Both the position numbers and the translations under genes were made by a program. Positions 18,313 through 58,169 of a stretch of DNA of 64,000 bases are shown here, in pieces (the stretch's first letter is position 1; each line of letters opens with the position of its first letter). Below the pieces are notes generated by a model, which ran no database searches, was not told the origin of the DNA, and saw nothing but the letters and a program-made list of their open reading frames with translations. This DNA comes from Flaccisagitta enflata (taxonomy: Eukaryota). The stretch covers positions 8,928,001 through 8,992,000 of the forward strand of contig OZ231126.1 in assembly GCA_965153355.1 (NCBI GenBank). Direction: 5' to 3'.

Positions 18313-19147
18313 GTGTATTTGGGTCCATCTACTCCTTCGTCTTCCGGGGCCGGTGGTTCGCTTCGCAGCGGCGGCGGAATTTCCTCCTCTGAAGACGCCG
18401 ATTCGGGCGTCAAGGAAGCTTCCAATCCTTCCGTCAATTCGAAAGCTTCCGGCGGAGAAGTCACGCCCACCGACAACGACGTCGACGTCCGTAACGACGA
18501 AGACGAAGATGTCAACGACGACGTCACCAACAAATCATCTTCCTCCGTGCTCACCGTGAAACCCGCCAAATCAGAGTCCACTGAATTACTCGGCGGGGGA
18601 CAACAACAGCAACAACAACCACAGCAACAACAACAACAGCAACAACAGCGGCGTTGTCGAAACTCATCGCTAAGTTCGATGTCCGCCTTGGATGTGATTT
18701 CTCGACATGACTTGAAGGAATCTTGCGTGGATCCGACTCCGACTCCCAGCGCCTCGCCGAAAGCCACGCCTACTACCGGCGGTAAGGACGCTCTCGTCAA
18801 TTCCACGTCGCTGAACGCCCCCTCCGGTTTTGGCGGAAGTGGCGCGGCGCCGATCCGCGCCATTCCGCCGCCGCCGCCGTCGTCGTCGTCATCGTCGGCG
18901 ATCGTTGCGGCGGCGGCGACGTCGACCAACAAATCCAACTCCTCATCTCCACTCACCAACGGCCCGCCAACTTACGATCAGTGCTTCCCAATGGTCAAAC
19001 AACAGCAACAACAATTGACGCACCAACAGCAACTTCCTCCGCACAACTTGCCAGCTCCTTTGTCATCCGCCATCCTTCCCGCCAATCAATGTCCTCCATC
19101 GATCAACAAGAATGATCCCAAAGAAGACTTGAAAACGTCAAAACCCG
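18313..19147 (+). CDS. Exon C of the + strand gene (Ser/Gln/Pro-rich, contains PPTY)
   Basis: Acceptor ctcttcattcag| and donor cccg|gtacat. GC-rich open frame equal to ORF 18313..19155. Phase 0 in, phase 1 out. Confidence 0.85.
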
Positions 19148-19319
19148 GTACATAATCAAATCTTCCGGCTTTGTCACATAGGATCCTTATTGAGATTGAT
19201 AAATTTGTTGTATCGCTCGAAATTCACCACAGCATGGCTGGCTGATTTTAAACTCGCCGCCCCTTCATAAGTTAAAACAGTTTAAGCGATAGATTGGAAA
19301 TAATTTGCCACTCATAAAA

Positions 19320-20326
19320 CATAGGTTGTCAAATGCCACTTATATAAAAGTTGGACAACATTACTACTCAACCCAATCTAGGCTGTCAAATGCCACTCAT
19401 ATCTCATAGGCTGTCAAATGCCACTTATCACTCATGAGTTGTCATACGCCACTTTTGTGTCATAGGTTGTCAAATGCCACTCATATCTCATAGGCTGTCA
19501 AATGCCACGTATATGTCATAGGTTGTCAAATGCCACTCATATCTCATAGGTTGTCAAATGCCACTCATCAATCATAGGTTGCCAAATGCCACTTATATCT
19601 CAAAGGTTGTCAAATGCCTCTCAAACAACATAGGTTGTCAAATGCCACTCATCACTCATAGGTTGTCAAATGCCAGTTATATCTCATAGGTTGTCAAATG
19701 CCACTCATCACTCTTAGGTTGTCAAATGCCACTCATCACTCATAGGTTCTCAAATGCCACTTGTCACTCATAAGTTGTCAAATGCTACTCATATCTCATA
19801 GGCTGTCAAATGCAACTCATATCTCATAGGCGCATAGGCTGTCAAATGCCACTTATCACTCATGAGTTGTCATACGCCACTTTTGTGTCATAGGTTGTCA
19901 AATGCCACTCATATCTCATAGGCTGTCAAATGCCACGTATATGTCATAGGTTGTCAAATGCCACTCATATGTCATAGGTTGTCAAATGCCACTCATCACT
20001 CATAGGTTGCCAAATGCCACTTATATCTCATAGGTTATCAAATGCCTCTCAAACAACATAGGTTGTCAAATGCCACTCATCACTCATAGGTTGTCAAATG
20101 CCAGTTATATCTCATAGGTTGTCAAATGCCACTCATCACTCTTAGGTTGTCAAATGCCACTCATCACTCATAGGTTCTCAAATGCCACTTGTCACTCATA
20201 AGTTGTCAAATGCTACTCATATCTCATAGGCTGTCAAATGCAACTCATATCTCATAGGTTGTCAAATGCCTCTTATCACACATAAGTTGTCAAATGCCAC
20301 TCATATGTTATAGGTTGTCAAATGCC
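19320..20326. repeat. 28-bp minisatellite (CATAGGTTGTCAAATGCCACTCATATCT), about 35 copies
   Basis: Direct reading. The last unit overlaps the acceptor of exon D. Confidence 0.95.
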
Positions 20327-20451
20327 GTTTCGTCGTATGGATCCTAATCCATTGCCCGCTGATTTTGACCCTGTTGCCCCTTGGGAATCCATGGCACATC
20401 CCAAGGATCAGAGGCAGATGCAAAAGTCCGCAGACGAAATCAAAAGGACAG
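20314..20451 (+). CDS. Exon D of the + strand gene (GCQMPFRRMDPNPLPADFDPVAPWESMAHPKDQRQMQKSADEIKRT)
   Basis: Acceptor gttatag| and donor acag|gtaaag. Phase 1 at both ends, matching exons C and E. Non-repetitive peptide between two repeat arrays. Confidence 0.75.
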
Positions 20452-21854: not shown

Positions 21855-24800
21855 CCCTCACATGCATATCTTCAGCTAGCTGCGTTATTTCTTGTAAGAA
21901 AAAAAAAATCGTTGAGGATGGCAAAAAAAAAGTGATTTCTATGTAAAATTGCATCAGGATTCCATTTTTGATGTTTTTAGGGCCCTACGAGGGGGCCCCT
22001 AGAAACGCACCAAAAAAAACAGCCAAAAATAGCCTATTTTGGCTATTTTTGTTGAAAATTTTTTGCTTTATGAGACCCTAACCCCCAAATTTTTTTGGTG
22101 GTAATACTTTTTGATGTAAGAGACTGAAAAAAAATGATCATCATGGTAAGTGATGGTTGGGGTACCTAAAAAGGCCCAAAAAGGGCCCGTAAAACATAGA
22201 AATATCACTTTTTTATTCATTGTGCGTCTAAAAATGCTTGGATTCCTACAAAATTTGAAATGGAACTTCTCATTTTATGCAACAATCTTCCTGCAAAGTT
22301 TTGTGGCCACTTTTGAACAGCTTCATGTTGAAATTATGCTCCAAAAAACAAAATTCGGCCAAAAAAAACCCAATATTTGAGTATTCTTACATGAAAACAC
22401 TATTTCAAGGTCCCTGAATCCAATTTTTTTTTTTGAAAATGGTTAGTCATGCATCTTGAGAGATCCCAGAAAAAATTTCAGCAGATATTTCCAAAAAATG
22501 GCCGAGTTATTACTTTTCAAAATGACCTGGTAAATGAAAAAAAATACAATTTTGTAACTTCAAGGCTGTAGAACTGAAAAATTATACTAAAAGTACCTGG
22601 AAAATAGACAAATTAAAAAGAAAATGCATGGGGAATTCATTACTGGTGGTTTGGGGGCTCTACAAGGGGGCCCCTGGAAACTCACCCAAAAAAAAGCTAA
22701 AAATGGCCTATTTTGGCTATTTTTTTAGAAATTGTCTTGTTTAAAGAGACCCAATCCTTCCAAATTTGTTTGGGCTATACTTCATGATGTAAGAGACTGA
22801 TGGAAAGAGAATCATGATGGTAGATGATGGTTGGGGTACCTAAAAAGGCCCGAAAGGGGCCCGTAAAACATAAAGATATCATTTTTTTATTCACTGCGCG
22901 TCCAAAAATGCTTGGATTCCAAAAAAATTTGAAATGGAGATTCTCATTTTATGTAAAAAGCTTTTGAACAGATTCATGGTAAAATTATACTCAAAAAAAC
23001 GAAATTCGCCCCAAAATAAGCCAATTTTTTAGTTTTCTCACATGTAGACACTATTTCAAGGTCATGGAATCCCATTTTTGTCGCATGCACGCGACTCTAC
23101 AACCCACTTTGTCTGTCCCTCTGTCCGTCCGTCAGTCTGTTGGTCAAACATTATTCTTTTTATTACTTTTAGTTATTCTTAGTCATTTTAGGCCATTTTT
23201 AGTCATTCTAAGTCATTCTAAGTTATCGTAAGTCATTGTAAGTCATTTTGAGTCATTTTACATTATATCAAGTCGCTTATGTCAATTTGGTCAATTTAGT
23301 CGTATAAGTCATTTATCATCATTTTATGACTTTTTAAGTTATTTTCAGTCATCTTAAGTCATTTTAAGTCAATTTGAGTCATCATAAGTTATCTATGTCT
23401 CGCACGCGACTTATAGGTGTTGGCCTTGTTTTTTCTAAATGGTTTCTCATGTATCTTAAAAGGTCCCAGAAAAAATTTAAGCAGATATTTTTAAACAAGG
23501 CCGTATACAAGAGCCGAAGTCGCGTGCGGGTGGGCAGGAGCGGCGAAAAAAGCTAAGCGTGACCGCTAAGTGTGACCGACCGACGGACAGACGGACAGAG
23601 TGGGTTATAGAGTCGCGTGCACGCGACTAAAAATGCTAGTACTGTTTAAAATGACCTGGTTAATGAAAAAAGTAAAGAGGCTGTTTGCATGAAAAATTCT
23701 ACTAAGAGTAACTGGAAAAAAGTTAAATGTATTTAAAAATGCATGGTGAATCTATTTCAGATGGTTTAAGGGTCCTATAAGGGGGCCCCTAGAAACGCAC
23801 CAAAAAGACTTTCTATAAATGGCCTGTTTTTGCTATATTTGGTAAAAAGAAATTTATCAATGAGACTCCAACCTTCTAAAATTTAAGGTAAGAATACTTC
23901 TTGATGAAAGAGACTGAAAAAAAGAATCATGATGGTAGGTGATGTTTGGGGTACCTGAAAGGCCCAAAAACGGGTGATAAAACAATGATACAAATTTCTT
24001 ATTCATTGTGCTTTAAAAGTGCTTGGATTTCTTCAAAAAATTGAAATAGAACTTTGCATTTAATGCAAAAAGCTCACTGTTAATTTTTGGTTCCTTAATT
24101 GGAGTATTTCATGAAAAAAAAATAGAAAACCACAAAATTGCCCCCCCCCCACCTCTGTAAATTCAATTTTCATTTTCATTTAAACCAGTGTTATTTAAAA
24201 AATAGTTGTTCCTGCATATGAACAGTAAACAGAAAGATGATCAACTTTACAGCACCAATATGACTCAGCCTGGACCATATGCTTAGAATCTTTAAGTGCA
24301 CCAAAGCATTTTTGATTCACTTACTGGCAAACAAAGAATACCATTTTCTTTTTTAAAACAGTTTCATTGTTTTTCATGTGGCCCAGTTGCCCAGGGGTGT
24401 CCGCGTGGAGGCACATACCGATTTCCCATATCAGGATGAGTCAGGTGAGTCACATGGTTCATCCTGATATGGACATTACACCCCCTCCTAGCTAGCTAAG
24501 CTAATAAGCAGGACTGTGGAGGTCAAAGTTGCTTATTTAAGATGTATCTTCCCTTTCTCGGACTATCATGAGTTTTTTATCCTTCATTTGTCATCAGAGG
24601 CCAATAAAACAAACAAATACGAATTTCTTATTCATTATGCTTTAAAAAATGCTTGGCTTCCTTAAAAAACTTGAAATAGAACTTGTCATTCAATGCGAAT
24701 AGCTTCCTGTTGATTTTTAGTGCCTTAATTGGAGTGTTTCATGGAAAAAAAAAGAAATCTGTAAAATTCACCTCTCTCTCTCTCCCCCTTGTCACTCACT

Positions 24801-26077: not shown

Positions 26078-27125
26078 TTATCACCTTTTCATGAATTTAT
26101 GATTTGCCTTTTCTCTCTCTCTCTCTCTCGGCTTATGTGTAGGAGACGGCCGGACATATGTAAGCACATATTTAAAGATTTAATTAAGCACAATGCCCCA
26201 ACATTAAACTAATACAGCTAACTTTGACCCTACCCTTTAATCATACCTCACTCCCTACCCCTGAACCCAACCCTGCCCCTAAACTCTTCACTACCCCTAA
26301 ACCCAGCCCTACGCCCACCCCTAAAAACTTTATCTTCCCATTTCTCCTTTCAGGGCGTGTTTCTAGTGACTCCCAAAAACGCTTTTGTTCCTGTGAAACG
26401 CGATCACAGCGTAAACACATATTTAAGAATTGGGTGAAGTGAATGAGCGAGCCCGTGAACGGAGCGAGCAAAACGAGCATAGCAAAGCTAAGCGCTGCGG
26501 AACGAATGAGCGGAGTGAGTGGTGCGAGCGAACGAACGTAGCGAGCGACCGAGTGGCTCTTTCAAAACGCGATTTTCTCTTACTGGAAACGTCCCCTCAG
26601 TCTCCTTCGCCTTCTCTTTTGGCTTTCATCCCTCAGATCTCTCGATCCTTTCCTCAAGTCTAAACCTGTGTTAAGACTCTTGACGTCATTCATACAGAGC
26701 CCTGGTCGAGAATATCACTGTCATTCATACAGAGCCCTGGTCGAGAATATCACTGCCATTCATTCAGAGTCCTGGTTGAGAATATCACTGCCATTCATTC
26801 AGAGCCCTGGTCGAGAATATCACTGCCATTTATTCAGAGCCCTGGACGAGAATATCACTGCCATTCATTCAGAGCCCTGGTTGAGAATATCACTGTCATT
26901 CATTCAGAGCCCTGGTCGAGAATATCACTGCCATTCATTCAGAGCCCTGGTCGAGAATATCACTGCCATTCATTCAGAGCCCTTGTCGAGGCTCACCTCT
27001 CCATTCATCCACAGCCCTGGTAGACACTCTCACTGCCATTCATTTAAAGCCCTGCGTGAGACATTAGTTGCCATTCATCCAGAGCTCCAGTTGAGATTAT
27101 CACTACCATTCGTTGAGACTATCAC

Positions 27126-27944
27126 TAAGGCCTTGCGTATGGCGTTTTTTTCTGCGGTTTCGGTTCGGGTTCGGAATACCTAAAAACCTTTCCTCGGGTT
27201 TATGACGGGTTTACATTGTTTTTTTAGTCGCGTGCACGCGACTCTACACCCCGCTTTGTCGGTCCGTCCGTCGGTCTGTCCGTCGGTCCGTCCGTCCGTC
27301 GGTCCGTCCGTCACACTTTACTTTTTTTGTAATAAAGCGTCAACTCTTAGGTCATTTTAAGTCTTTTTTAGTCATTAATAGTTATTCTAAGTCATTTTGA
27401 GTCATTCTAAGTCATTTTAAGTTATTCAAAGTCATTTTAAGTTATTTTAAGTCATTTTTGGTCGTTAGGTTTTTTAGACATTTTAAGTCCTTTTTGAACA
27501 TTTTAAGTCATTCTAAGTCGTTCTAAGTCATTCTAAGTCATTTTAAGTCATTCTAAGTCCTTCTTACCCTGTAAATCTCGCACGCGACGTATAGGTGTTG
27601 GCCTTGTTTTAATAAAAATAGTAACAAAGAGATGTCTGGTTATTTGCCAGAGAGAAAAAAAGAGAGAGAAAAAAGTGACAGAAAGAAAAAAAAAGAAAGT
27701 TTAAGAAGAAAGAAGAGAGAAAATGAAAAAGAAATTAAGAAAAAAAGCAAAGATTCAAATTTATACACAAACAGACACAGACATGGACATATTGAGACAG
27801 CACTGAGATAGCAAAAAATCTGTGAAAAAGGTGAGCAAAAAAAAAAAGGAAAATTAGTTTGAACAGCATAATAAAAAAAACAATAAAATAAATGTAACTA
27901 ATAAAGAAAGAGAGAGAGAGAGAAAGAGAGAAAGAGAGAAAGAG

Positions 27945-28869: not shown

Positions 28870-30629
28870 ACTATCACCACCATTCATCCTGAGCCATAAT
28901 TGAGACTTGCCTTGTTGTTCATTGGGAGCCTTGCTTGTGACTCTCAAGGTTGAGACTATCACTGCCATTCTTTCAAAGCCTAGGTTGAGAATTGAGACTA
29001 TCACTGCCATTCATCTAGAGCCCTGGTTGAGACTATCACTGCCATTCATTTAAAGCCCTACTTGAGCCTATCACTGCCATTCATTCAGGGCCCTGGTTGT
29101 GACTCTCATTATTGTTAAATGTTAATCTAGAGTCCTTGTTGAGACTTAGTGTCATTCATCCAAAGCCCAGGTTGATACTCATAAGCCCAGGATGAGATTC
29201 TCACTGGCATTCATCCACAGCCCTGGTTGACACTCAGGAGCCAAGGATGAGATTCTCACCAGCATTTATCCAGAGCCTTGGTTGACACTCTCATTGAGTT
29301 TCTGTTGTAATACTCAAAAGCCTAACCTAGTCCTTCTATCAAGGGCTGTTCTTGATAACACATCCAACCTTTAACCTGGCTAATTGTCATGCCATCTAGC
29401 ATTTACCTGTATTTTTTGTTGCGGACACGCAACTATAAAAGAGGCTTTGTCCGTCCGTCCGTCCGTCCGTCCGACAGTTATAATCAAGTCGAAAAGTGGG
29501 AAAACAAACGTTTTGGATACTTTTTGTGTATGTCTGTGTGTGGACGCGGGGATTGGGGTTTGGATAGGGGTTGGACGCCCCTGCCCACCCGTCTGCAACG
29601 ATATTGTGACCCCGCGTCACTTGTTTCTTTCTTTCTTTCTTTCGTTCGTGATTTCTTTCTTGATTTCTGTCGCTCTCCTTCATACAATGCCGTTCTTCAC
29701 ATTTTCCTCTCTTTCTTTCTGATTTTTGCTCTATCTTTCTCTCATTTTCCTTTCTTAGCTTCTTACTTCGCATCTACTCATTCTTCCATTCTACTTATTT
29801 TTTCTCGTTCTTTCTTCTTTTCAGTTGTGGACACGTAACTCTATGAAAGGTTTTGTCTGTCCGTCCGTCCGTTGTGTTGTTGGTCCATCAGCATGAGCCA
29901 AAAAGTGGGAAAATGAGCGTTTTTTATTACTTTTTGCAAATGTTTGAGTGTGTATTGGCGGTCAGGGTGTAGATAGGGGTTGGATGCCCCTGCCCACCCG
30001 TCCGCAACGACATTGTGACCCCGCGTCACTTGTTTCTTTGTTCTTTTGTTCTTTCGTACATTCTTCCCTCCTTTCTTTCGTTCTTTCCTTTCTCCGCTTC
30101 TTCTTTCATTCTTTCTCTCTTCATTCCTTTCCTTTTTTTCTCAATTTCCTCTACTTTATTCATGCAGTTTATTCACACTGAAACTCCTTTTCTCTTCATT
30201 TCTTGTCCCGATGTGACTTCTGGAGTGATCGTTCCTTGTTTTCTGGGTTATCGAATCCAAAATTGAGAAGATAGTCCATATAAGGTCATATCAGGTGAAA
30301 TGCATTTTGAAGGAATGAATCGTTGGTTCACATCACACCTATAGAAAAGAAAAAATAGGTCCCTGTAGTACAGCGGTTCTATTCCGTGTTCTCTCTGTCT
30401 CTTTCTCTATGACTGTCTCTGTCTCCTTCACTTTATCTCTGTCTTTTTCTGTCTCTCGCTTTCTCTCTGTTTCTCCCTGTTTCTCTCTGTTTCTCTGTTT
30501 CTCTTTCTCTCCCTCTTTCTCTATGTCTCTTTCTCTCTCTCTCTGTCTCTTTCTCTTTCTCTTTCTCTGTCTCTGTCTCTGTCTGTCTGTCTGTCTGTCT
30601 CTCTGTCTGTCTCTCTGTCTGTCTGTCTG

Positions 30630-42313: not shown

Positions 42314-42809
42314 CATTGTTGTCGTTGTTGTTGTTGTTGTTGAAGAGCGAACTACATGCCAGATTAACCCGATTTTTAGTCCGTAGGTAGGTAGGTCAGT
42401 CGGTGCTTTATCGGCAACTAGAAATTCAATTTTGAATTCAATTTTTACAATTTGAAAAATGTATTTATGGGGCTGCGAATCGTACGATGGTACCACCAAT
42501 GATTAAAGTAGCAAAAACAATAACGACAATAATGATATCTTTCTGAAAGTTTTTTACAAGAGACAAATGTTCTTTTTTTTTATTATTATTATTTTCTTTT
42601 GCCTTGCATATCTGTTTCCAAAACAGTCAATCATTTTCCTGATTGTCGTAATCTTGTCCTTGACGTTGATCTTGTCCTAAATTTCGTTCATGATTACATT
42701 ATACAGTAATGATCATGTTTTGATCTTGTCCTACATCAGTCATGACATTTATGATCACTATGATACAGTTATGATCATGTTTTGATCTTGTCCTACATCA
42801 CGTTTATGA

Positions 42810-42913
42810 TCACATGATACAGTTTCGGGATTCGGTTCCATCTTCGGTCATTTTGGTCCAACATTTCATCACGTATCCATCGGGTTTGCAAACGAAATAT
42901 TCCAACTCGTTCT
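42810..42913 (-). CDS. VWC-domain secreted protein, exon 5 (terminal)
   Basis: Acceptor gattttgcag|, peptide ENELEYFVCKPDGYVMKCWTKMTEDGTESRNCIM then TGA. The five exons total 465 nt (154 aa plus stop) with no internal stop. Confidence 0.85.
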
Positions 42914-43157
42914 CTGCAAAATCAGCGATCGTTATCATGTAAATTGTGAATAAGGTTGAGTGCGGGTGGGCAGGAGCATTAATGAATGATATTTGTACTC
43001 GTTTGGATGTAGCCAAAAACCGAAAACACCGAAAAAACAAAGTCATACGGAATGACTAACTTAACAGGTTGTACTGGACTGGTTAATAAGACATATTACA
43101 TAATTGCGATATTAGATAAATGAATAATAAATGAATAAGTGGATAAATGACATGTAC

Positions 43158-43247
43158 CTGGATTGAAGTATTTTTCATCGCTCGGCTTCACGACTTGTCC
43201 GAAAATCTCACAATTATCACCATTTGGACAAGTTGGACAACAATCAC
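43158..43247 (-). CDS. VWC-domain secreted protein, exon 4
   Basis: Acceptor ttttgtccctcag|, peptide GDCCPTCPNGDNCEIFGQVVKPSDEKYFNP (CCPxC VWC terminus), donor cag|gtacat. Confidence 0.9.
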
Positions 43248-43339
43248 CTGAGGGACAAAATGAACGGTTTAATGCACGTTTCTTTGAAATTTTTTGGTTA
43301 GATTTAACATTTCATATTTCTATTTCATTGTAGAATCAC

Positions 43340-43437
43340 CTTCTGCAGTGGTTGAGTCCACGCATGGAAGAGGCCATCGAGTTTGACAGTATGTTATGAC
43401 TTCTTCGCAGTGAGTCAAAATCTGATCGCCCTCCGTC
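43340..43437 (-). CDS. VWC-domain secreted protein, exon 3
   Basis: Acceptor gtttgcag|, peptide TEGDQILTHCEEVITYCQTRWPLPCVDSTTAE, donor ag|gtgatt. Phases 2/1. Confidence 0.85.
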
Positions 43438-43679
43438 CTGCAAACCACGAAATGGGGCGGGGCCCGGGCGCAAGGGCAGTCATCAAATGGGCTAATCAAG
43501 CATTAGGGCAGGGGCAGTGACGCGAACAAACGCCTAAAAACTTTAAAAAAGCAACCGACCAACCAACCGACCGACCTACAAAGCGTATCAAAAAGTCTTG
43601 TGCACGCGACCATGACCAAAGAGTCATTTGAAGGTAGCTGGCATTTCTTATATAACCAACATCAGCCGCGAGCAGAGGA

Positions 43680-44449
43680 ATTTGAATGCCGTGGCATTTG
43701 ATGCTGGAGGCCATACCGTCCGACAAAGCAGCATTTGAAGCTACACATAATAACCCAGTATGCAGTTGAATGTGATGCTAACAACCATACCTCTGTATGC
43801 ACAGTGCAGTTGCATCTGAAGCAGCAGATCATAGCTTTGGCCTTGGATGTAGTTGCATTGGAAGATGCATATCATACCTCTGTATGAAGTTTTCGATTTC
43901 TTTGACACTGTAGACCATACCTCTGTGTGCACTTACAAATGAAGCAGCAGCAGCAGATCATACCTTTTTATGCAGTTGCATTCGATGCTGCAGATCTTAC
44001 CACTGTATGCAGTTGCATTTGATGCTGCAGACCATACATCTGTACGCAGTTGCATTTAATGCTGCAGACTATATCTCTGTATGCAGTTGCATTTGATGCT
44101 GCAGACCATACCTCTGTACGCAGTTACATTTGATGCTGCAGATCATACCTCTGTACGCAGTGGCATTTAATGCTGCAGACGATACCTCTGTACGCAGTGG
44201 CATTTGTTGCTGCAGACCATACCTCTGTACGCAGTGGCATTTAATGCTGCAGACCATACCTCTGTACGCAGACGCATTTTATGCTGCAGACCATACCACT
44301 GTACGCAGTGGCATTTGATGCTGCATACCATACCTCTGTACGCAGACGCATTTTATGCTGCAGACCATACCACTGTGCGCAGTGGCATTTGATGCTGCAG
44401 AGTGCAGACCATACCTCTTTACGCAGTGGCATTTGATGCATGGGATATC
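43680..44449. repeat. 37-bp minisatellite (GCAGACCATACCTCTGTACGCAGTGGCATTTRATGCT), about 20 copies
   Basis: Direct reading. It overlaps the 3' end and donor of VWC exon 2 and decays toward lower coordinates. Confidence 0.95.
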
Positions 44450-44508
44450 CTTTGGGAAATCATCGCAGTTGTCAACGACGCGGACCGACTGCCTCTCGAT
44501 GAGTTGCT
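44415..44508 (-). CDS. VWC-domain secreted protein, exon 2
   Basis: Acceptor cctacttcag|, peptide QLIERQSVRVVDNCDDFPKDIPCIKCHCVK (CxxCxC motif), donor ag|gtatgg. Phases 1/2 fit the neighbouring exons. Confidence 0.85.
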
Positions 44509-45161
44509 CTGAAGTAGGCAAAGCATTTGAATACTTAGTATTTGAAAGTAATTTCGGTTCAAACTAATTCATGAGAACAACCTTGCGTGTGTCAAATCTT
44601 TCAAATATAATTTCTGACAAACAAGAAAAATGAACAAAAGACACTGCAAACAGTCATGCAAAATTTGACACTAGTGACCTCCAGAATGACAAAAGCCTAA
44701 AAATCAACTTTTGTGAGAACCGAATTACCGATGGACCGACTGACCGACAGACGGACAATGTGACCTGAAGAGTCGAGTAGCAACAACAACAACCAAAACA
44801 AAAAACTGGCTGTTTGCGAATTTGCTCTGATTTGTCAGTGATGAAATGTCAAGAGACACCTTTTTCCAGCCAAGGCCAATGTATAAGGTCTGTGCGATTC
44901 AATCATTTCAATTTATAATGTCCACTATTTTTGGTCGGTCGGTTGGTCTGTCCATCACTCCATCCGTCCGTCCGTCCTTGCAATGTTCTCTGGCCCTGCC
45001 AACTGCACGTGACTGCTAGGTTGACCTTTTCCTATCGTTTTATCAATGATTCGAATTCTTTTTTTCTTTTAGCAGTAGTATCCACTAATCGTAATACATT
45101 TTGCTAAGCACAGTATTTCACTTAGCAATTTTACAAACAGTATTTCACTTTGGAAGTTTAC

Positions 45162-45240
45162 TTGGTTTTGTTTCCTCCGCAAAACATTTGGTGAGGAGGA
45201 CGAGACCCACCAAAACAAACTTGAAGCGACCACAGCACAT
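45162..45240 (-). CDS. VWC-domain secreted protein, exon 1 (signal peptide)
   Basis: Reads aaaATG MCCGRFKFVLVGLVLLTKCFAEETKP, with a basic n-region, hydrophobic core and CFA cleavage-like site. Donor gtaaac, phase 1. Confidence 0.8.
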
Positions 45241-46729
45241 TTTCGTGTTGGACTTTGTTTTGCGGAGAATATCGTCGGAAAAAAATTCTATTTGAATATG
45301 ACAGAGCTAGATAAAACATGAATAATGTTGTGGCAGATGAGATCGAGCTTTATAATGCTCGCTCAACCGACAAGGTCGGACTGATGCTTAGCTTAGTACA
45401 GTAAAAAGTTGTTCAAACGAAATCTAAGGGGCCAAGAAGATATTTTGTTATAGAGATTATAGCCAATATAAAGTCTTATAGAACAAAAGAAATATACTGA
45501 AGGATCTTCTTTTGTCAGGCGAAAACTCATTACAGGCGCATCCTTTGGAACGCTATTTGACTGTAGTTCCTATGAAAGAAGACAATTTCGTTTTCGTTTC
45601 GTGCATGTGTTTCTATGAGTCACTTTGACAGGTCGTAGAGCAGCCAACCGGTCGGAAACATGTTGAATCCAGGCATTTTTTATACCTTATCAACTTTTCA
45701 ACATCGTCATTTTTGGCAATGTTATGTCATTTTATCGCACTATTTCATTGCACGCGTCTCCGGCCTCTATACCTTACTTGCTTCAATGCTTTTTATCTGA
45801 CCTTTCTGTGTCTTTTACTTTTTTAATCAATGTTTCATAAAACAAGGCCAACACCTATAAGTCGCGTGCGGTACATAAATAACTTAGGGTGACTTTTATT
45901 GACTCAAGATGACTTAAAATGACTTAAAATGACTTAAGACAACTTTAAATGACTTAAAAAGATAAAAAATGACTGAAATGACTACTTTGACCTATTAGAC
46001 TGAAGTGACTTGAAATAACTTAGAATGACTTAGAATGACTTAGAATGACTGAGAATGACTGAGAATGACTGAGAATGACTTAGAATGACTGAGAATGACT
46101 TAGAATGACTAGAAATAACCTAAAGTATAGTAAAAAAGTAAAGTGTGACGGACGGACCAACGGACGGACCGACGGACCGACAAAGCGGGTTGTAGAGTCG
46201 CATGTTTCCTCATCAAACAAACTCTTTTAAACCTTTTAGCGGTACTTAGTTGGAAATGAGTACTTTAATTCCTTTGATTAGCGCGTGCCCCTCTTTCCAG
46301 TTTGTCCTACTGTTTCTCAATGGTCAGTCGAACACGTAATTATCAAATCAACATGAAACATCCATGTGTTATTGTGTAAATACGAAGAGAAATTTGGCAT
46401 ACTATTGGTGCTAGCAATTCTGTAGTTCTGTCCGTCTGCCTGTGTGACCATACGCGGGTTCGCGAGGCTAAAACCACACGCTAAAAATGTCCCAGTCAGC
46501 TTTTCGACCGCCAATCGTCAACCCACAAAGTCCCACATGGCCACATCATCAAACTTCTTCCCACCCTCAGTCTCGAGAACAGCCTTCCGCATCTCACTTA
46601 ACCACTTCTCCGCAACACATCGCCAAAATGACCCCTAAATCAACCCACAACATTCATTACACCCCCTCTAGTCAAGGCTCTTCTCCTCCTCACCCCCCTC
46701 CCCACTCAACACCGCCAAAATGACCACTA

Positions 46730-55552: not shown

Positions 55553-56806
55553 CACTTTTTTCTTTTTATAAGAACCAAGTTTATAAGAACGTTAGGCTTC
55601 AATTCATTAAAAATTTTTGAACATTCTAAGAACATTGGAAAGCTTCATTTCTTCAAAAATTTAAGAACATTAGACTTAAAATCTAAAAAATCTAAGAACA
55701 TTTTTTTTGCTATTTTCTTATCAAATGTTCTTTTTAAATGGAAAGACTGTATCTTTTATGTTCAGCGAATCATGTTTTTTTTTTATTGCACATATTTTTC
55801 TACTTTTATTGATTTTAATTCACTTACAATGTTTAAATCTGCTACTTTTTGTTTCATTGACATTTTCCTTCATTTTCTCCTTAATGACATACTTAAGAAT
55901 GTTTTTAATTGAAAGTTAAAAAGTGCGTTTAAATCAAGAACAATTTAAGAACGTTCAAGCCTTGAAACTAGTGATGTGGAAGCGGAAGCGGAAGCGGAAG
56001 CGGAAGCGGGTGGAAGCGGCACTTTCTCACTGGAAGCGGAAGCGGAAGCGGAAGCAGTTTTTAGAATCTCAGTGGAAGCGGAAGCGGAAGCGGAAGCGGT
56101 TTTTAAAAATTTGGTGGAAGCGGAAGTGGAAGCGGAAGCGGAAATAAAAACTTAAATGGAAGCGGAAGCGGAAGCGGAAGCAGATACAGTGGAAGCGGAA
56201 GCGGAAGCGCTGAAAGCTTCCGCGTCCACTTATATACATTATCAGGCTTGAGCAATTGTATAAGTTAATAGGACTAAGAAAATTTTGTGTATTTGGTTTT
56301 CCATATAAATGTAACCAATTTTGTAATTTTCATTATGCAATACAATACAATGCAATAATAAAATAGTAAAATAGTAAAATAATAAAATAGTAATGAAAAA
56401 ATCAAAGGGGAGTAAAAAAAAATCAGGTAGATGAATAAGCATTTAAGATTCTTAGAACAGAATAAGTAATAGTGATAAATGATAAGAAGAAGAAGAAAAA
56501 GAAGATAAAGATTAAGTGAAAGTGAAAGAGGGTAAAGGATAAAGAAAAGGAAGAGGAAGAGGAAATTGTGTGAGTCTAAGTGACTGAAAAAAAAGAAGAA
56601 GAGGAAGAAAAATTTGAGGAGTAGGAGGAGGAAAAAGAAGTTTTGGTGAGTAAAGAATAAGGGAGAGGAAGAGGAGGAGTTTGAGTGAGTGAAAGATAAA
56701 GAGGAGGAGGAAGAAGAAGAATGTACATCTGTTAAGGAGACAGTGAAAAGCTAGAATTTCAGGGGATGAAGAAGAGGATAAAAAAATAGAAATGTAGATA
56801 AAAAAA

Positions 56807-57244: not shown

Positions 57245-58169
57245 GATACAGACACACACACACAAACACTTAAACAAACAAAAAAAAACAAACATAGCTA
57301 AAACATCTAACAGTAGCTATAAAAAAACAAATAAAAAGGTAAAAATATCTATATGTAACATTCATTTAATCCAATTTAAGAAATCATTATAGTTTATGAA
57401 TTATTATCAATACTCAATTTATCAATATTATGTTTGTTTGTTACTTTGCCTGCCTAACAGATATGCTCATCTCTTGATTTACAAAATGGCCATTTTGATA
57501 ACAATAAATCTAAATTTGAATGTTTGGATAATAAGTTATTTTTAAGTTTTTTTTCGATAGTGACATTGTATTGTACCAAAAACATAATTGATTCATTTAT
57601 TCATAGTTAAGAATAAAACACCTGGTAGCCTTTTTTATTTCTACCAACTATATTTTTCTTTATTGTCATATCAATTTCATATTTATAGTCAAAGGATTTT
57701 ATGTAAGTATTATAACTATATTTTCCATTTGAAAGATATTTGTTTTTATTATTCAGGATTCTTGTGAATCAAGTACTATTGAAATTGAAGTTCTTCTATG
57801 TTATAAGATTAGATAAAATAATATAAGCTCTAGTGGATGTGGTAATGAAAGCGGAAGTGGAAGCGGAAGCGGAAGCGGAAGCGGAAGCGGAAGCGGAAGC
57901 GGAAGCGGAAAAAAAAATTGAAATGGAAGCGGAAGCGGAAGCGGAAGCTTTAAAAAATTCTTAGATGGAAGCGGAAGCGGAAGCGGAAGCGGAAAAATAT
58001 TTCTGAATGGAAGCGGAAGCGGAAGCGGAAGCGAAAACAATTTTGAAAATGGAAGCGGAAGCGGAAGCGGTCCAAAAATTTGGCGCTTCCACATCACTAC
58101 TTGAAACTGCTCAAAATTTAAGAACATTGAAGGCTTGCTCAAAAAATGATGTTCTTATAAAAAAAAGTA
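55553..58169. mobile_element. TA-flanked non-autonomous DNA element hosting the GGAAGC element
   Basis: Ends CACTTTTTT...TTATAAGAAC and GTTCTTATAAAAAAAAGT, internal TAAGAAC repeats, inserted in a short ttagctgagat repeat. Confidence 0.6.
55969..58099. mobile_element. hAT-like element with (GGAAGC)n subterminal arrays
   Basis: Perfect TIR TAGTGATGTGGAAGCG / CGCTTCCACATCACTA and 8-bp TSD CTTGAAAC. Confidence 0.9.

Follow-up and report, generated by a model that had tools for sequence, protein, structure and literature searches.

How is a 5' splice site chosen when the authentic site is followed, unit after unit, by copies of itself? The question is raised by a small gene on the minus strand of the 64,000-nucleotide stretch of DNA analysed here (the window). 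A preliminary description, drawn up from the letters of the window, had noted about 20 tandem copies of the exon 2/intron 2 junction of this gene. It had proposed that they form a bank of alternative donors yielding an isoform with additional cysteines together with several truncated secreted peptides. Do the copies work as donors, and if not, why is the first preferred to those that follow?

The host gene was predicted from sequence as five exons, and all of its splice sites were then confirmed by a contig from a public RNA run, X1. This contig (559 nt, depth 13.2) joins 45300-45162, 44508-44415, 43437-43340, 43247-43158, and 42913-42800, and all four introns that it skips begin with GT and end with AG on the minus strand. 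The coding part of exon 1 (45162..45240, minus strand) begins with an ATG at 45240, encodes a hydrophobic, signal-like N-terminus (judged by eye), and ends at a phase 1 donor after 45162, from which the contig, covering 45162-45300, passes to 44508; the transcript extends 5' of the ATG beyond 45300. Exon 2 (44415..44508, minus strand; 94 nt) carries a CxxCxC motif (C-I-K-C-H-C) at its end and is bounded by joints 44508/45162 and 43436/44414, the latter corresponding to 43437/44415 once the cut is moved by +1 and recurring in a second run, X2. Exon 2 accordingly belongs to the transcript, with its end at 44415 and the start of exon 3 at 43437 as originally proposed. Intron 2 (44414-43438, minus strand) measures 977 nt, exactly the length skipped by the RNA joint; its 3' part (43438..43688, minus strand) is free of the repeat and carries the acceptor. 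Exon 3 (43340..43437, minus strand; 98 nt) and exon 4 (43158..43247, minus strand; 90 nt), the latter with a CCxxC motif, are likewise placed by RNA joints, the one between them being 43241/43334 with a cut of +6. Joint 42913/43158 leads into exon 5, whose coding part (42810..42913, minus strand) ends with a stop codon at 42812-42810, and the transcript runs on past the stop, below 42800.

What does this transcript encode? The spliced product is 154 aa long and has 17 cysteines in full, 14 of them in the mature part. After the signal-like N-terminus the cysteines are ordered C, CxxCxC, C, C, C, CCxxC, ten in all, and four more follow. VWC proteins have the same ten-cysteine arrangement with CxxCxC and CCxxC, and the gene is predicted to encode a small, putatively secreted, VWC-like cysteine-rich protein. 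The likeness has one flaw. PROSITE-type VWC patterns separate the fifth cysteine from the sixth by 3-4 residues, whereas six are present here. The strict pattern consequently finds no match in the spliced product, and a regular expression with this single spacing relaxed from 3-4 to 3-6 matches residues 50-97. The spliced product does show a VWC-like cysteine pattern, in keeping with the preliminary description.

Searches for relatives of this protein returned little. A Pfam scan of the three stop-to-stop frames containing exons 2, 3, and 4 singly produced unrelated sub-threshold matches and no VWC domain (PF00093) at E up to 10; these were single-exon frames, and the VWC-like domain spreads over exons 2-4. 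No homologue of the frame containing exon 3 emerged as a candidate among longer proteins, a PDB sequence search with exon 3 gave two matches at chance level (E 4.7 and 5.2), and the top score for exon 3 in the ESM Atlas was 0.75, under any useful level. An exact 24-mer of exon 3 had no match in metagenome contigs. A metagenome protein scan with the 81-aa frame containing exon 5 gave 240 pattern matches, none of them confirmed, and no second copy of the locus was found in these metagenome scans. Within the window there are no paralogues, since tblastn of the spliced product yields no matches beyond the gene and the repeat copies, and an Rfam search of the whole window gave no matches. Given these results, the protein may be lineage-specific.

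The array was delimited by fitting units along the minus strand. About 20 head-to-tail units of 37 bp occupy 44441-43689 (minus strand): one authentic, 12 clean, and seven decayed. Tandem Repeats Finder (TRF) reports the array at 43953-44439 with period 37, 13.0 copies, 86% matches, and a score of 659. Each unit consists of the exon 2 tail (about 25 nt), a GT donor, and about 12 nt of intron, so that the units are indeed copies of the junction at the exon end placed by RNA, in the number first described. Unit 1 (44405..44441, minus strand) is the authentic exon tail with the donor in use (GT at 44414-44413). It is separated from unit 2 by a spacer of 7 nt (44398..44404, minus strand), which is why the second donor lies at +44 instead of +37. 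The 12 clean pseudo-units (43954..44397, minus strand; TRF and unit fitting) each match the consensus at 31-36 of 37 positions, and the seven decayed units, found by unit fitting, fill 43689..43947 (minus strand), the final one (43706-43689) being partial; one of them, 43743-43707 (about 24 of 37), was identified by eye and not by the fitting script. Units 2-3 and units 4-5 are two occurrences of one 74-bp dimer, alike at 36 of 37 positions per unit, which points to growth of the array by duplication of more than one unit per event.

The copies become less faithful away from the exon, as had been claimed. With increasing distance, identity to the authentic unit is 32, 30, 33, 31, 33, 32, 32, 32, 30, 31, 29, 30, 26, 19, 12, 24, and 23 of 37, the lowest value belonging to a unit that is out of register (43818-43782). 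Over these 17 ungapped pseudo-units, a set that omits one gapped unit (43867-43825) and the partial one at the end of the array, identity falls with distance at a Spearman rho of -0.81 (p = 8e-5); the trend among the first 12 pseudo-units alone is weak (rho -0.51, p = 0.09).

Each unit in 43954-44397 (minus strand) also contains the hexamer CCACTG and, on its donor side, CAGTGG or CAGAGG, which are reverse complements or nearly so. The pseudo-donor of each unit is therefore predicted to be able to form a small hairpin. In the authentic unit the fifth base before the cut is A instead of C, a change that weakens the hairpin pairing; the predicted difference in accessibility is negligible.

Which of these donors does the RNA use? 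Four public runs were compared with 42800-45300, three as assembled contigs (X1-X3) and one as raw polyA reads (X4); the two informative runs come from one study. The intron 2 joint from 44415 to 43437 occurs in two of the four, in one contig each (X1, depth 13.2; X2, depth 3.9). The first, authentic donor, with the exon end at 44415, is the one in use. Junctions 44371/43437 and 44334/43437, suggested at the outset as the signature of alternative donor use, were looked for, and no joint from either site or from any other repeat unit is listed in the X1 and X2 contigs that cover the junction. Nor do the RNA contigs list cassette joints, in which pseudo-exons would be inserted between exons 2 and 3. 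As far as contigs show, then, only the 44415 donor is used; assembled contigs lose rare variants and do not give isoform ratios, and low-level use of another donor, or a minor isoform, could escape them.

The remaining RNA sequences speak to other matters. Run X3 placed no sequence on 42800-45300. About 6 in 100 reads of X4 were sampled, giving 12 partial reads with 90-95% likeness, all on simple repeats and none on exons, which are uninformative for splicing. In X2, unspliced contigs at 42800-42963 and 43082-43249 extend into intron 4, and a 67-nt contig lies inside the array at 44107-44173, with three differences, collinear with the genome and free of joints, as would be expected of pre-mRNA or DNA and not of an alternative exon. 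The unspliced X2 contig 43082-43249, comprising exon 4 and part of intron 4, differs from the window at eight of 168 nt, and the spliced X1 contig matches the window almost perfectly. These eight differences suggest that the sampled population carries a diverged allele or that a close paralogue lies elsewhere in the genome.

Why does the first donor win? The 9-mer of the authentic donor is identical in six pseudo-donors, and further ones differ by 1-2 nt. Seven sites with the same 9-mer thus lie inside 625 nt, and the first of them is used. Masking of the pseudo-donors by RNA structure was considered and rejected: the predicted unpaired probability is near zero for all of the 9-mers (0.0002 for the authentic site, 0.0000-0.066 for the pseudo-sites), and accessibility that is equally low on both sides has no bearing on the choice. 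Since the sites share their 9-mer and their predicted accessibility, neither strength nor structure explains which donor is taken, and position does. The locus is a natural test of 5' splice site choice among many equal sites, and its outcome agrees with the position-based model (oriented scanning or exon definition) derived from human F7, which it would extend to this marine eukaryote. None of this would surprise a specialist. It does set a trap for annotation, as gene predictors may choose the wrong donor among identical copies.

What would the other donors produce? The second donor (exon end 44371) has T at -2, and its use would lengthen the exon by 44 nt and shift the frame, as had been stated. 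The third (44325..44334, minus strand), identified in the sequence with the authentic 9-mer and with no RNA joint listed, would end the exon at 44334. This site is the sole alternative that keeps the frame. It would add 81 nt, stop-free, and exactly the 27 residues predicted in the preliminary description. The resulting product of 181 aa would carry these 27 residues inside the domain, after its fourth cysteine and before its fifth, and with them three cysteines, which raises the count in the mature part from 14 to 17. An odd number of cysteines argues against a well-folded isoform. Seven of the eight alternative donors tested introduce premature stops that precede the last exon junction by more than 50 nt, with products of 79-130 aa. 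In many animals, a premature stop in such a position marks the transcript for decay, and we assume that it does so in this organism. The proposed isoform with extra cysteines and the truncated secreted peptides therefore find no support: no RNA joint leads to them, the in-frame form has an odd cysteine count, and the other donors bring early stops.

Do the copies bear marks of selection as coding sequence? When the 12 clean pseudo-units are compared, codon positions 1, 2, and 3 show 15, 5, and 7 changes (of 96 each), and the intronic part has 8 in 120. Third positions are no more variable than first or second ones, and the comparison gives no sign of coding constraint on the pseudo-units. Both Cys codons are nevertheless intact in all 12, with one synonymous change. 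The CAG that precedes the 24-nt segment of each unit is unchanged in 12 of 12, the GT that follows has survived in 11 of 12, and every segment is open in the cassette frame, flanked by both AG and GT in 11. This retention is compatible with some coding use and is no evidence for it, being what young copies of coding sequence are expected to display.

The array is very probably an intronic minisatellite whose first monomer lies across the exon 2/intron 2 boundary, and, as far as the protein is concerned, it is most likely neutral or nearly neutral. The duplicated 74-bp dimer speaks for a tandem origin. Slippage or unequal exchange would have produced a first tandem duplication of a 37-bp segment comprising the exon tail, the donor, and 12 intron nt, and expansion would have followed. 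Selection would act on the exon-bound copy alone, and distal copies would be left to decay. The spliceosome would pick its site by position, taking the first suitable donor after the acceptor of the exon, either through exon definition or through 5'-to-3' oriented scanning, and the downstream copies would be silent pseudo-sites despite their equal strength. Leaky use of a pseudo-donor would yield mostly transcripts with premature stops, which would be degraded, and it is on this account that the array should matter little to the protein. By analogy, the mechanism of donor choice may be the oriented scanning described for F7.

Could the repeats nonetheless have a function? The main rival to a neutral minisatellite, and an unlikely one, is a regulator that depends on copy number, in which U1 snRNP, bound at the intronic donor-like sites, would adjust how efficiently the transcript is spliced or how much of it is made while the protein is unchanged; alleles that differ in copy number would then differ in their expression of the gene. 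Many intact U1-type sites do lie near the authentic donor, and in F7 the number of repeats correlates with the factor VII level. Alleles of such arrays vary in length, with 5-9 repeats in F7 (PMC1557585) and six versus three units in BflGb6 (PMC3087553). The distal units of the present array, however, decay as expected in the absence of selection on the array. A working bank of donors, whose regulated use would give the 181-aa isoform with a duplicated C-x-C motif as well as several truncated secreted peptides, is quite unlikely. The structural reading behind it is right; the function is unsupported, and the arguments from the protein make it improbable. It would draw on the six pseudo-donors with the authentic 9-mer and on the open, in-frame +81 extension. 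Neither run covering the junction lists such a joint, though, and the insert would fall inside the VWC-like domain and leave 17 cysteines; the second donor, with its T at -2, shifts the frame, and the codon positions lack the signature of constraint. Precedents exist on both sides: human IFI6 (6-16) and CBS use the authentic site and the two nearest copies, whereas F7, LMNB2, and PDGF (PMC1557585) and the lancelet mirages of Adh3, TnC, and the globins (PMC3087553, PMC3902484) use the authentic site alone.

Two further explanations appear extremely improbable. The units could serve as raw material for new exons or introns, with non-adjacent units acting as 24-nt cassette mini-exons (eight residues, two cysteines) or as seeds of intron gain, for which Ebner et al. 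published a model based on lancelet globins (PMC3087553). The open segments with their Cys codons, CAG, and GT would suit such a role, but copies of coding sequence would have open frames in any case. Adjacent pseudo-exons lie 13 nt apart, too little for an intron, pyrimidines are scarcer ahead of each AG than at the four real acceptors of the gene, and the RNA contigs list no cassette joint. It is about as improbable that the assembler inflated a shorter array or collapsed the array. Ebner et al. do describe one mirage as misassembled in a genome draft (PMC3087553). The units here, however, differ from each other in a graded, position-specific manner, and a contig from an RNA library sits within the array with three differences in 67 nt. 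The RNA joint skips exactly 977 nt, which supports the flanks rather than the copy number. The neutral minisatellite thus remains our preferred reading.

The window as a whole has a GC content of 0.41 and a very high load of tandem repeats, with 172 TRF rows listed and 22 further ones. Some families are present at more than one place: one with a unit of 10 bp is found at 23181-23382, 27347-27559, and 45900-46110, one of 35 bp at 26687-27118 and 28950-29290, and one of 42 bp at 56025-56183 and 57849-58070. Short (GTCC)n runs are also numerous. At such a density, it is not very surprising to find the edge of an array near a splice junction. A candidate for a second boundary array, on the acceptor side of another gene and apparently the one to which the preliminary description called the present array a mirror case, lies at 19290-20326 (plus strand) and has about 34 copies of a 28-bp unit (TRF 19379-20326, 80% matches, score 1138), each with an AG acceptor and the first 16 nt or so of the next exon. 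The exon after it, predicted at 20314-20451 (plus strand), is an open, non-repetitive segment of 46 aa with a GT donor at its end. In this array a block marked by a distinctive variant unit occurs again at a distance of about 430 bp (by eye), suggestive of a higher-order duplication. For the large exon of this neighbouring gene (18388-19155), no homologues at E <= 0.001 were found among longer proteins.

The two boundary arrays, 19290-20330 (plus strand) and 43680-44449 (minus strand), lie 24 kb apart and have in common a 12-mer, TCAAATGCCACT, which lies on the sense strand of both genes and is absent from the rest of the window; in the first gene, its last three bases are present in the repeat units and not in the real exon. 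The chance expectation that this pair would share it, estimated from the k-mer diversity of both arrays, is roughly 0.03. Some 12-mer is common to 12 of the 276 pairs of arrays in the window, most of which belong to one repeat family. The sharing could be due to chance or to a common seeding motif. It is very unlikely that the present array is not inert, with low-level or tissue-specific use of cassettes or of the +81 donor producing a secreted VWC-like protein whose number of C-x-C modules varies, and that boundary arrays are also seeded by this shared core. If both were true, 'mirages' would generate new exons and introns in a directed way and would not be the outcome of random slippage.

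How does the array compare with others? It belongs to a published kind, the exon-boundary minisatellite ('mirage' or F7-type VNTR). Like them, it is a tandem array with a unit in the range of 10-160 bp, its first monomer lies on a real boundary, a splice signal is reiterated, and regular splicing is kept, as judged from contigs. The F7 account describes a 37-bp VNTR in human intron 7 whose first monomer lies across the boundary of exon 7 and which provides 4-8 identical pseudo-donors (PMC1557585). These pseudo-donors were functional when tested and never chosen, which was explained by 5'-to-3' oriented scanning to the most upstream site (PMC1557585, Borensztajn et al. 2006). The present array is alike in its 37-bp monomer across the boundary, its identical pseudo-donors, and splicing from the most upstream site alone; the equal period is a coincidence. 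The differences from F7 (PMC1557585) lie in scale and in proof. F7 has 5-9 repeats with four exonic nt per monomer, whereas the present array has about 20, with about 25 exonic nt in each, and each copy therefore also carries coding sequence, namely the C-x-C motif, unlike those of F7. The function of the F7 pseudo-sites was proven by mutation, whereas ours are known from their sequence.

Other human genes resemble the locus in having reiterated donors after the authentic one, with 25 such donors in IFI6 and 15-20 monomers in CBS intron 13 (PMC1557585, PMC4526556). In these sources, the two nearest pseudo-sites of IFI6 exon 2 and of CBS are used constitutively and give in-frame isoforms, whereas no such use is listed here and one donor alone is in frame. 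By analogy with these two genes, 44371 or 44334 could plausibly see minor use.

The lancelet (Branchiostoma) 'mirages' are known from Adh3, TnC, the globins BflGb6 and BflGb9, and PGBD5, and they affect 5' as well as 3' exon boundaries; the papers describe allelic length differences, report no aberrant mRNAs, and propose the arrays as a source of new introns (PMC3087553, PMC3902484). As in the present array, units that span a boundary reiterate AG or GT and leave regular splicing undisturbed, and units at the edge escape homogenisation and diverge (PMC3087553, PMC3902484). Both boundary types occur in the lancelet, and the window has one candidate of each. Lancelet units range from 10-72 bp in Adh3 to 150-160 bp in the globins, where there are 3-6 copies, compared with 37 bp and about 20 copies here (PMC3087553, PMC3902484). 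The host genes of the lancelet arrays differ from ours, which encodes a VWC-like, putatively secreted protein. Should the source of this DNA not be a lancelet, 'mirage' minisatellites would not be peculiar to cephalochordates.
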